From a virus (lineage: Duplodnaviria; Heunggongvirae; Uroviricota; Caudoviricetes), in the IMG/VR virus record IMGVR_UViG_2778261540_000003: a DNA stretch of 64,000 nucleotides. One strand, given 5' to 3'. Positions within the stretch are counted from its first letter, which is position 1; each line of letters starts with the position of its first letter. Shown in pieces: positions 52,761 to 54,642 of the stretch. The translations under genes and the position numbers were made by a program. The notes below the pieces were generated by a model. That model had not been told where the DNA came from. It ran no database searches and saw only the letters and a list, made by a program, of their open reading frames with translations.

Positions 52761-53555
52761 ATGACAGCACAAAATACTAAAACCATTCAATACCGCCTAC
52801 GTAATGGCCAGAGTGTCGAAGTGACCATCAATAACGATGGAGTGCCAGGCGAAAAGGTTTCTATCTCTGATCTGGCTATCGAAAAAACCATCATGTGCCA
52901 CCTTGGCTTTACTGAAGAAGTGAGCAAAAAGCATGGTGTAGCTATCTGGCGCACAATGGATACTGGAATGCGCAGATTCATTACTGCTCGTACCCCTGGT
53001 ATGACCATGATGGACCTCATGCAGATTGCGCCGCTGTTTGAGTGTGAACCTCTGGATGTATTCAGTAATCCAGTTATCTGCCAGCAGTTATATGGTGAGA
53101 TGAAACTCGCGGTTACCCCCATCGTGCTGCATGAAGGATCGCTTGCTGGCGTATGGAAAGTAGAGCGAATTTCAAGCTACATGCCCTTCCACGTCCATGT
53201 CAACGGCGTAATCACAGGTGAAAATCAACCTGTTTCAGTTACAAAGTCAGACCTCAAGCGTGCAATTCTTGAAGCAAGTTGTCGAGTTATCGGCCTGGGC
53301 AAACAGTCTTATGTTTGCTTCCCCGCAGGCCCAGAAGGCCAGGCTGAAATACTGGCGATGGATGCCGATCTGCTCTGGCAAATAGAGTTTATGATAGGGA
53401 AAAGCATCATCCGAGCTGAAGAACTCGATCAGTACATTACCTGCACAATGACGGATGAGGTAAAAAGTGTGGCTATAGCCAAAGCCCGGAACCTGTGTCG
53501 TGCTGCATTAACAGAACTGCGAGAAAACACCACGGAAGAGGTGGAAAGTGATTAA
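52761..53555 (+). CDS. Hypothetical protein, partner of the PacB-like paralog
   Basis: 264-aa ORF; stop overlaps next start. Confidence 0.6.
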   Translation: MTAQNTKTIQYRLRNGQSVEVTINNDGVPGEKVSISDLAIEKTIMCHLGFTEEVSKKHGVAIWRTMDTGMRRFITARTPGMTMMDLMQIAPLFECEPLDVFSNPVICQQLYGEMKLAVTPIVLHEGSLAGVWKVERISSYMPFHVHVNGVITGENQPVSVTKSDLKRAILEASCRVIGLGKQSYVCFPAGPEGQAEILAMDADLLWQIEFMIGKSIIRAEELDQYITCTMTDEVKSVAIAKARNLCRAALTELRENTTEEVESD

Positions 53556-54642
53556 TCGTATACAGAATGAATCTGCCTGGTTAGCACTGATAGAACAGTA
53601 TAAAGACAATTGGGAACTGGCAGCGAAAGAGTTGCTTGATATTGAGTTAACACCTCATCAAGCAAAAATTATTAACGCGATAAAGAACACCGGAGCCAAA
53701 GTCACTGCCACCACACCACATGGTATTGGGGAAACCTCTATTGTGGCAGTGATTAGCATCCTGCAAACAATACTGTATTCGTGTTCCCGTACAGTGGTTG
53801 TTTCTCCTGCTATTAACGATAGTCGAAAAACAATAATTGACTATATGTTCCGTTATTGGGAGCGAGTTACCCAAAAACACCCTTTTCTTGGCAATCATTT
53901 CAGAATGCACCCTGACAAAGGGTTGGTGCATATCAGTGAAACATGGGGATGCGTCTATATAACCTATTGTCTGAATAACGAAGTGTCTCTGGCTGGTTTT
54001 ACTGGACCGCACGATCTTTTCATCGTTATTAACTCGGCGGAAATCAGCGATCGCGCTCATGCAGTGATAACTGGCAATTTAACCAATTATGACTCGCGCC
54101 TGCTGTTGCTGTCGAAACCATCGGAACGCGAGAAAGGGTACTTTTATGATTCGCATCACCGGTTGGCCCATAGTAAAAACAATCCTGCTGGTTTTTTCAC
54201 GGCGATAACTCTAAACACAGAGGATTCGCCTCTCGTTTCTGAAGCATATCTTGAATTCAAAGCCAAAGAGTTTGGTGGGCGCAATAGCGATGAATATCGC
54301 CGATTGATCTTGGGGAAATTTCCCGGGATTCGGGAGTTGATGGAAAAGTCATCTGTTCCCCGTAATATGCACTTCACAATGACTGACGGTAGTAAATGGG
54401 TAGTGCCTACGATCGTGATCGCCAAACACCATGCGAAACATCACGCTCAAAAACACAACTCCAGCACATTAGACTGGCTGAAGGCCTATACAATACCGTT
54501 ATTCTCGGCAAACCATAACGCTATAGCTGAATGGGCTAAACAAATCCCCTGGCAGGATGTGGCTGAAGAGGCATTTGTCGAAAAACCTCCGAGAGATTTG
54601 CACGAGCACTGTTGGCTGACATCAGAAAAGAGCTTCTCGTGA
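53548..54642 (+). CDS. PacB (terminase large subunit) N-domain paralog with degenerate ATPase motifs
   Basis: 364 aa; [38 protein letters not shown] aligns with Pac[38 protein letters not shown]; Walker A Lys replaced (PHGIGETS), Walker B DE replaced (VINSAE). Confidence 0.7.
   Translation: MINRIQNESAWLALIEQYKDNWELAAKELLDIELTPHQAKIINAIKNTGAKVTATTPHGIGETSIVAVISILQTILYSCSRTVVVSPAINDSRKTIIDYMFRYWERVTQKHPFLGNHFRMHPDKGLVHISETWGCVYITYCLNNEVSLAGFTGPHDLFIVINSAEISDRAHAVITGNLTNYDSRLLLLSKPSEREKGYFYDSHHRLAHSKNNPAGFFTAITLNTEDSPLVSEAYLEFKAKEFGGRNSDEYRRLILGKFPGIRELMEKSSVPRNMHFTMTDGSKWVVPTIVIAKHHAKHHAQKHNSSTLDWLKAYTIPLFSANHNAIAEWAKQIPWQDVAEEAFVEKPPRDLHEHCWLTSEKSFS

Follow-up and report, generated by a model that had tools for sequence, protein, structure and literature searches.

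Large terminases rank with the most conserved proteins of phages, and bacterial immunity by pattern recognition has them as a main target. Their ATPase domain is by itself enough to trigger Avs2 and Upx, and Avs2 contacts the ATP bound by the terminase (bioRxiv 10.64898/2026.04.30.721860). Stand-alone relatives of this domain have been noticed only recently, i.e. T4 vs.8, Ksap1 and Ksap2, which are accessory proteins with a terminase-ATPase-like fold that engage Avs2 (bioRxiv 10.64898/2026.04.30.721860; PMC11564622). Here we analyse the gene for a protein of 364 amino acids (aa) in a P1-like phage-plasmid, IMG/VR record IMGVR_UViG_2778261540_000003, of which a stretch of 64,000 nucleotides was used, in the following called the window. 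Bases 52000-55000 of the window are 100% identical to the GenBank records MH422554 ('Punavirus P1') and MH445380. Judged from its sequence, the 364-aa protein, or pseudo-terminase, is a two-domain pseudoenzyme encoded by a real gene under purifying selection. It has a fold derived from PacB, the large terminase of P1, without the residues predicted to be needed for binding and hydrolysis of Mg-ATP and without a nuclease. No description of this gene, of ATPase-dead terminase paralogs or of terminase decoys was found in the literature.

A BLASTP comparison with the PacB protein of the window gives 34% identity over 284 aa with an E-value of 2e-50, and the pseudo-terminase also matches the PHROG family phrog_2, 'terminase large subunit', with an E-value of 1.2e-7. 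A first-pass annotation made from the sequence alone had proposed such a paralog from an alignment by eye; the similarity is significant and, by these sequence scores, far beyond chance. In tblastn searches the best active relatives are the PacB proteins of P1, P7, D6, phiW39, SJ46, RCS47 and Cronobacter phage JK004, which are 33.5-35% identical to the pseudo-terminase, and every other terminase found is at most 27% identical. Other searches were less informative. A word-indexed homolog search returned three proteins and missed PacB, a PDB sequence search with the N-terminal domain alone gave zero matches, and a profile of the family matched nuclease domains only (P22 gp2), by way of its PacB and P0003 rows.

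Viral contigs, genomes and metagenomes were searched for further members, and the family was found to consist of two clades, with no third clade in any of these collections. Clade 1 comprises proteins 92-100% identical to that of the window. Clade 2 is 52% identical to clade 1 and colinear with it, and is found on E. coli phage-plasmids of about 89 kb with a different replicon type.

Six real terminases were used as the reference alignment for the active site: PacB of P1, D6 and JK004, together with the proteins of a D6-like element and of Xanthomonas phage Rb1 and a metagenomic protein. They are 28-81% identical among themselves, and the motifs SGxGxGK[ST] and DEA[SA]G are present in all six. 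In register with these, the Walker A motif of PacB (SGHGTGKS) aligns with TPHGIGET in clade 1, where the lysine is replaced by glutamate; the loss of the lysine had been noted in the first-pass annotation. An alternative lysine is not found in the P-loop. The Walker B motif (YIIDEAS) aligns with FIVINSA, with aspartate replaced by isoleucine and glutamate by asparagine. The loss of the acidic pair had been recognised correctly, but the pairing then given, IIDEAS with VINSAE, was one residue out of register, and the PacB string quoted as LLLLSQPT reads ILLLSQPT, a minor slip. Clade 2 has TP[HY]GIGRP at Walker A, with arginine at the position of the lysine and proline for the serine or threonine of the P-loop. 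At its Walker B motif DE is changed to VD, i.e. the Walker B aspartate is replaced by valine and an aspartate is kept at the position of the catalytic glutamate. The Walker A lysine and the Walker B aspartate are missing in 34 of 34 copies, and since both clades share this loss it is ancestral to the family. Furthermore, 17 of the 33 positions that are invariant in the six terminases are altered in one or both clades. Residues 1-180 account for 14 of these changes, among 20 such positions, and residues 181-260 for 3 among 13, so that most of them fall in the nucleotide-binding half. We infer from these replacements that the ATPase activity has been lost.

The alignment with PacB stops near residue 285, and nuclease motifs are absent from the remaining sequence. 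This agrees with the earlier statement that the nuclease half is lacking, except that this half is not simply missing but is replaced by a conserved domain of about 100 aa. Taking the five defining features of a large terminase subunit (TerL) together, homology of the N-terminal domain was found, whereas Walker A, Walker B with the catalytic glutamate, the nuclease and a small-terminase neighbour were not. The pacA-pacB genes of the window have a late-promoter box upstream at 26836; the pseudo-terminase gene instead follows ssb and isaA. The protein is thus predicted not to be a functional large terminase, and because four of the five features are missing the GenBank label is misleading. This label, 'terminase large subunit', is carried by the gene in MH422554 and MH445380, while RefSeq (Prokaryotic Genome Annotation Pipeline, PGAP) has a hypothetical protein.

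Several parts of the PacB domain are kept. They include the N-terminal segment DPRW..LV..Y...W..AA..LF and the half of the domain that follows Walker B, and also the C-motif region (LLLSxP), the GYFYDSHH block and the end of the domain, GGR..Y..G.FP. With the first two retained, the dead domain might bind PacA, the portal, PacB subunits or pac DNA and act as a competitor or regulator of packaging. Cleavage at pac and packaging of the own element would then be delayed, or the terminase of P1-like relatives, whether co-resident or co-infecting, poisoned. This is the main rival to the explanation that we favour, and we regard it as possible though rather unlikely. Pseudoenzymes often regulate their active paralogs, the closest active relatives are the PacB proteins of the P1 supergroup, and an overlapping partner gene followed by a TerL-like gene mirrors the order of pacA and pacB. 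However, the protein is just 33-36% identical to any PacB: each clade shows this same range to all PacB variants, and the PacB of its own element is no closer. In addition, the partner IsaA shows no similarity to PacA, for the regulator of a core process a patchy pattern of presence and absence would be unusual, and a self-inhibitor would be costly.

All 34 examined copies are full length with zero internal stops. The ratio of nonsynonymous to synonymous substitution rates (dN/dS, Nei-Gojobori) is about 0.20 in clade 1 and about 0.10 in clade 2, and the ATPase-like part has values similar to those of the C-terminal part. Intact copies and low dN/dS point to a maintained protein rather than a decaying duplicate. 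The catalytic motifs are lost and the cassette that carries the gene is often absent, as would be the case for a functionless, decaying terminase duplicate, but the full-length copies, the dN/dS of 0.1-0.2 in both clades and the colinearity at 52% identity are hard to reconcile with decay. The same replacements could belong to an NTPase that is active through non-canonical residues, for which clade 2 offers an aspartate at the position of the catalytic glutamate and an arginine at that of the lysine. Here the change of the Walker B aspartate to isoleucine or valine, the proline in the P-loop of clade 2 and the lack of an alternative P-loop lysine speak against activity, and we consider a remnant or an active NTPase very improbable. 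The proposal of a pseudo-terminase without catalytic residues has thus gained support, as the degenerate motifs are common to a second clade only 52% identical to the first and the gene is under purifying selection.

Between the clades, conservation is highest in the C-terminal part of the protein, from about residue 262 to 364. A homolog of this C-terminal domain occurs as a stand-alone protein of 98 aa in Cronobacter phage JK004, where its gene lies just after a DnaB/Ban-type helicase gene. Another forms the C-terminus of ORF36 of Xanthomonas phage CP2, a protein with DUF1351 and a coiled coil encoded near Erf, an exonuclease and a single-stranded DNA-binding protein (SSB). A profile search with the domain gave 666 clusters, nearly all of them stand-alone proteins of about 100 aa without a name or a Pfam domain. 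In lambdoid prophages, a Salmonella phage-plasmid and an Acinetobacter prophage the genes are found within early arrays of accessory genes, downstream of genes for DnaB-type helicases or for RecT, YqaJ or UvrD. The motif of the family is MPDGSxWxVP..VIA..RA.YYA...PLF...DWA.NNMNWSDV, and an AlphaFold2 model of the domain, with a predicted local distance difference test (pLDDT) of 87.8, consists of a beta-hairpin followed by three helices. No match to the domain was found in PDB, BFVD or Pfam, and no similarity to known replication factors was detected. The domain is real, common and undescribed, and is a candidate new domain family. Loci of this family in our collection are window 54331-54639, L040 4010-4306, L041 1765-3300, L042-L044, L077 and L078.

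The company of the C-terminal domain also allows a reading in which it contacts a replication or recombination protein, with the ATPase-like domain as a scaffold or DNA-binding platform beside Ssb. Its conservation between the clades, the stand-alone homologs just downstream of the helicase or RecT/YqaJ/UvrD genes, the fusion to a DUF1351 protein near Erf, exonuclease and SSB in CP2, and the orientation of the gene, which is the same as that of ssb with no terminator between them, are in line with such an accessory role. Adjacency to helicase or RecT genes is nevertheless weak evidence, because hot spots of the nin-region type host unrelated small accessory genes. Moreover, in clade 2 the gene pair is not beside ssb, and a domain without detectable similarity to known replication factors is not what this role leads one to expect. 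We hold it to be unlikely.

The gene belongs to a variable slot. In blastn, DNA homology between the window and P1 ends one base past the stop codon of isaA (53556) and restarts at hxr (54674), while P1 has a terminator, the insertion sequence IS1 and an unrelated isaB gene for 201 aa between isaA and hxr. The location of the pair between ssb and hxr/ddrB, with IS1 at the same place in P1, was given correctly in the first-pass annotation. We also considered whether the pseudo-terminase gene could be P1 isaB in a form that is not interrupted. This was rejected, since blastn finds no homology over 53557-54673 and the break falls exactly at the isaA stop.

Many plasmids have the hairpin AAATCCCGCCGATTGGCGGGATTT immediately behind the stop codon of isaA. 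Because the stop abuts this shared hairpin where the gene is lacking, the pseudo-terminase gene is a precise presence/absence cassette of 1.09 kb; the site of the GTG start reads AGC in the form with isaA only and AGT in the form with the cassette. A query of isaA plus cassette matched 337 plasmids in PLSDB, of which 120 carry both genes, and a sample spread down the ranking shows the remainder to be mostly matches to isaA only. The gene is an optional cassette and not a fixed gene of P1. Its slot is the variable region RD-2 of P1-like elements (PMC6906374, PMC9603915), the genes of which are non-essential in P1 (PMC10695390). P7 (AF503408, 25531-26646) has the outer-membrane porin gene nmpC in the same slot between ssb and hxr/odaA, which makes this slot a cargo hot spot.

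The family is found only in P1-like and D6-like phage-plasmids of Enterobacteriaceae. The clade-1 cassette is present in 100 of 5,426 complete E. coli genomes, and 99 of its 101 places are on plasmids. The G+C fraction of the gene is 0.445 and that of the window 0.486, a difference that is only mild and not decisive for a foreign origin. A fragment 100% identical to residues 151-364 was observed in JAFAFU010000075.1 (L037), a metagenome-assembled genome named 'Bacillota bacterium', which is probably mis-binned plasmid DNA from Enterobacteriaceae.

Table 1. Features of the window at and around the pseudo-terminase gene
Feature	Position	Strand	Description and basis
isaA	52761-53555	+	264 aa, PHROG 2326; open reading frame (ORF) call, annotation
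Pseudo-terminase gene	53548-54642	+	364 aa; GTG start inside the 3' end of isaA
PacB-like ATPase-fold domain, degenerate active site	53548-54330	+	Residues 1-261; BLASTP against PacB, motif alignment
Walker A remnant TPHGIGETS	53713-53739	+	Residues 56-64; lysine replaced by Glu62; motif alignment
Walker B remnant FIVINS	54019-54036	+	Residues 158-163; aspartate replaced by Ile161, catalytic glutamate by Asn162
C-terminal domain of about 100 aa	54331-54639	+	In place of the nuclease domain; homology, AlphaFold2 model
Presence/absence cassette, 1.09 kb	53556-54647	not assigned	Local blastn, junction sequences, plasmid survey
G+C-rich hairpin terminator AAATCCCGCCGATTGGCGGGATTT	54648-54671		Between the convergent pseudo-terminase gene and hxr
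ssb	52075-52563	+	First gene of the transcription unit; ORF, Ssb in identical and related records
C1 repressor operator Ossb ATTGCTCTAATTAATTT	52039-52055	+	Identical to the annotated P1 operator; overlaps the ssb promoters
pacA	26890-28083	+	The window's own packaging gene, in a module with pacB
pacB	28083-29567	+	Functional large terminase of the element; closest active relative, motif reference

The two ORFs are arranged as the first-pass annotation had described them (Table 1). Their overlap of 8 nucleotides (GTGATTAA) and the sequence GAGGTGG just 5' of the GTG start make translational coupling of isaA and the pseudo-terminase gene plausible. In clade 2 the overlap is 11 nucleotides.

The C1 operator and the promoters 5' of ssb are identical to the Ossb region of P1. 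On the + strand no terminator-like site was found between ssb and isaA, and no promoter-like site between ssb and the pseudo-terminase gene, after which there is a strong hairpin. A scan for the P1 late-promoter box found none upstream of isaA. It does recover the annotated LPlyz exactly, and it finds sites with two mismatches just 5' of pacA and of prt. The window has 11 matches to the box, which is above all 100 shuffles, with sites at 26836-26854, 48274-48292 and 51993-52011. A further site at 53546-53564 (+), AAGTGATTAATCGTATACA, resembles a late-promoter box plus a -10 element with two mismatches to LPlyz. As it lies on the stop of isaA and the start of the pseudo-terminase gene it cannot serve the full gene, and the likeness is probably due to chance. 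Ossb is the likely control point of the unit formed by ssb, isaA and the pseudo-terminase gene. The simplest reading of this layout is that the gene would be co-transcribed with ssb early and under C1 repression, well before PacA and PacB are made from their late promoter.

This layout bears on a further possibility, that of a defence or exclusion gene of the prophage which is expressed in the lysogen and would bind the small terminase or the portal of superinfecting phages, so that their packaging is blocked. Interference with helper terminases is known from satellites. Variable regions in P1-like elements carry cargo, e.g. restriction-modification genes (PMC9603915, PMC6906374). However, the C1 operator, whose effect in lysogeny is repression, is the only control element that can be recognised; a search of the + strand from ssb to the gene gave no promoter-like site, and PADLOC has no match to the protein. 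Taken together, these points leave such a role quite improbable.

The partner gene was earlier taken to encode an unknown protein of 264 aa. Its adjacency and overlap are as stated, but the protein already has a name, being IsaA of P1 (PHROG 2326), for which the P1 annotation gives a longer form of 320 aa, and it is often found without the pseudo-terminase gene. In a CRISPR interference (CRISPRi) screen isaA was non-essential in P1 (PMC10695390). The gene lies immediately 5' of the pseudo-terminase gene in 31 of 31 informative loci, besides which there is one contig cut off upstream and one locus with an IS21-family element in that place. In the latter (L010, 68-1869) ORFs similar to IstA and IstB occupy the position of isaA and the pseudo-terminase gene is intact. 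The two proteins have diverged in parallel between the clades, with identities of 46% for IsaA and 52% for the pseudo-terminase.

Distant homologs of IsaA (25-33% identity; L048, L049) are encoded a few genes downstream of c1/cre-like genes in other P1-like phage-plasmids and have no terminase-like neighbour. The presence of these homologs elsewhere in P1-like phage-plasmids marks IsaA as an old, lineage-specific gene. A comparison of IsaA with PacA showed no similarity, and no match to IsaA was found in Pfam, NCBIfam, PADLOC or PDB sequences; for PADLOC, where the limit was an E-value of 0.1, this also applies to Hxr and PacB. An AlphaFold2 model of IsaA, built with seven sequences from the two clades, has a pLDDT of 45 and is unusable.

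Directly 5' of isaA, clade 2 and several clade-1 elements have a Tad2-like gene, which encodes a protein of about 225 aa with a C-terminal PF11195 domain (74-80 bits against a cut-off of 25). It was observed at L021 4527-5213, at L055 1662-2336 and at L007, L009, L015, L023, L025 and L028-L031. Tad2 is an anti-defence protein against Thoeris (bioRxiv 10.1101/2023.05.01.538930). The array of Tad2-like gene, isaA and pseudo-terminase gene is modular, and each of the flanking genes is optional. In clade 2 the pair lies between dut/Tad2-like genes and doc/phd-humD. In the window, the dar antirestriction operon (hxr, ddrB and further genes) is adjacent to the pseudo-terminase gene and convergent with it.

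The explanation that we favour, though tentatively, is that the protein mimics the ATPase domain of the terminase without catalysis, is made early and acts by binding in a conflict between phage and host or between phages. According to its sequence, the protein would be unable to drive packaging or to cut DNA. It would be made early after derepression, well ahead of PacA and PacB, and it would act purely through binding, by mimicking the fold of the terminase ATPase, with a role in conflict and not in the core life cycle. The patchy distribution of the cassette in an accessory region is what argues for conflict rather than core packaging. The Tad2-like gene of related elements and the dar operon nearby would fit such a setting, and vs.8, Ksap1 and Ksap2 offer a precedent. 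Within this explanation we slightly favour counter-defence. Host sensors for the ATPase domain of the terminase would then be occupied or blunted by the protein, or else it could be a terminase-like effector that has shed ATP binding so that the sensors are not triggered. Alternatively, the mimic may sequester a packaging partner.

A more specific form of the proposal can be given, which we consider improbable as a whole. An ATP-blind mimic would occupy or mis-assemble the sensors of terminase (Avs1-3, Upx) early, so that PacB goes undetected when it appears later, with IsaA and the small C-terminal domain as helpers. If true, this would be the first inhibitor of terminase-sensing immunity made from the terminase itself.

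Several points weigh against the mimic explanation. A mimic that binds an Avs-type sensor is expected to activate it and not to block it, and a protein unable to bind ATP might escape binding by the sensor altogether. Early expression is deduced solely from the operon layout, and an internal promoter may be present. Since both clades are equally distant from all PacB variants, there is no signal of co-evolution with PacA or PacB of the host element. Zero matches were obtained for the protein in Pfam, and in PADLOC at E-values up to 0.1. Finally, the argument from the neighbourhood is weakened, as the Tad2-like gene is missing from this window.

What appears to be new is a TerL paralog, predicted to be ATPase-dead, with a fused domain. 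The family is narrow, its anatomy is clear, and the finding is slightly surprising. It offers a paralog of clear homology in the best-studied family of transducing phages, with an active site that is dismantled yet selected, and its fusion partner is a very common small phage domain without a name. Isogenic variants that differ in having or lacking the gene, or the Tad2-like gene, also occur in nature. Given these natural on/off variants and the clear anatomy, the role of a terminase-like accessory protein can be tested in E. coli. The answer could bear on transduction and packaging by P1, or on evasion of Avs/Upx immunity.

In comparison with known systems, the pseudo-terminase shares with PacB of P1, P7, D6 and JK004 a homologous N-terminal ATPase domain (33-36% identity, E-value 2e-50). 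It differs from PacB in lacking the Walker A lysine, the Walker B aspartate, the catalytic glutamate and the RNase H-like nuclease domain. Its gene, furthermore, is optional, lies away from pacA and the structural genes, and is placed in the early ssb operon and not behind a late promoter. P1 IsaB (201 aa, NC_005856 gp020) has the same slot between isaA and hxr, but its sequence is unrelated to that of the 364-aa protein.

Satellites provide another point of comparison. The small-terminase homologs of phage-inducible chromosomal islands (PICI) and Staphylococcus aureus pathogenicity islands (SaPI), as well as Ppi and Rpp, hijack or block the terminases of helper phages via protein-protein binding. 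The concept proposed here, i.e. a non-motor protein that interferes by protein-protein binding, would be shared with them. However, the satellite proteins target or mimic the small subunit and have their genes on satellites, whereas the 364-aa protein is a derivative of the large subunit and is encoded by the phage.

Like vs.8 and the Ksap proteins, the 364-aa protein would have a terminase-ATPase-like fold, as predicted from its homology to PacB, in an accessory protein of narrow taxonomic range. Ksap1 and Ksap2, which trigger KpAvs2 (PMC11564622), are much smaller (74 aa for Ksap1) and have no sequence homology to terminases, in contrast to the 364-aa protein, which is an unambiguous sequence homolog of PacB. 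The closest described analogue appears to be T4 vs.8, which is likewise a lineage-restricted accessory paralog of the ATPase domain of its own terminase without a nuclease domain. T4 vs.8, here compared by its published description, is a stand-alone protein that activates EcAvs2 and has conserved Walker A and B motifs (bioRxiv 10.64898/2026.04.30.721860), whereas the 364-aa protein has a dismantled active site and an extra C-terminal domain.

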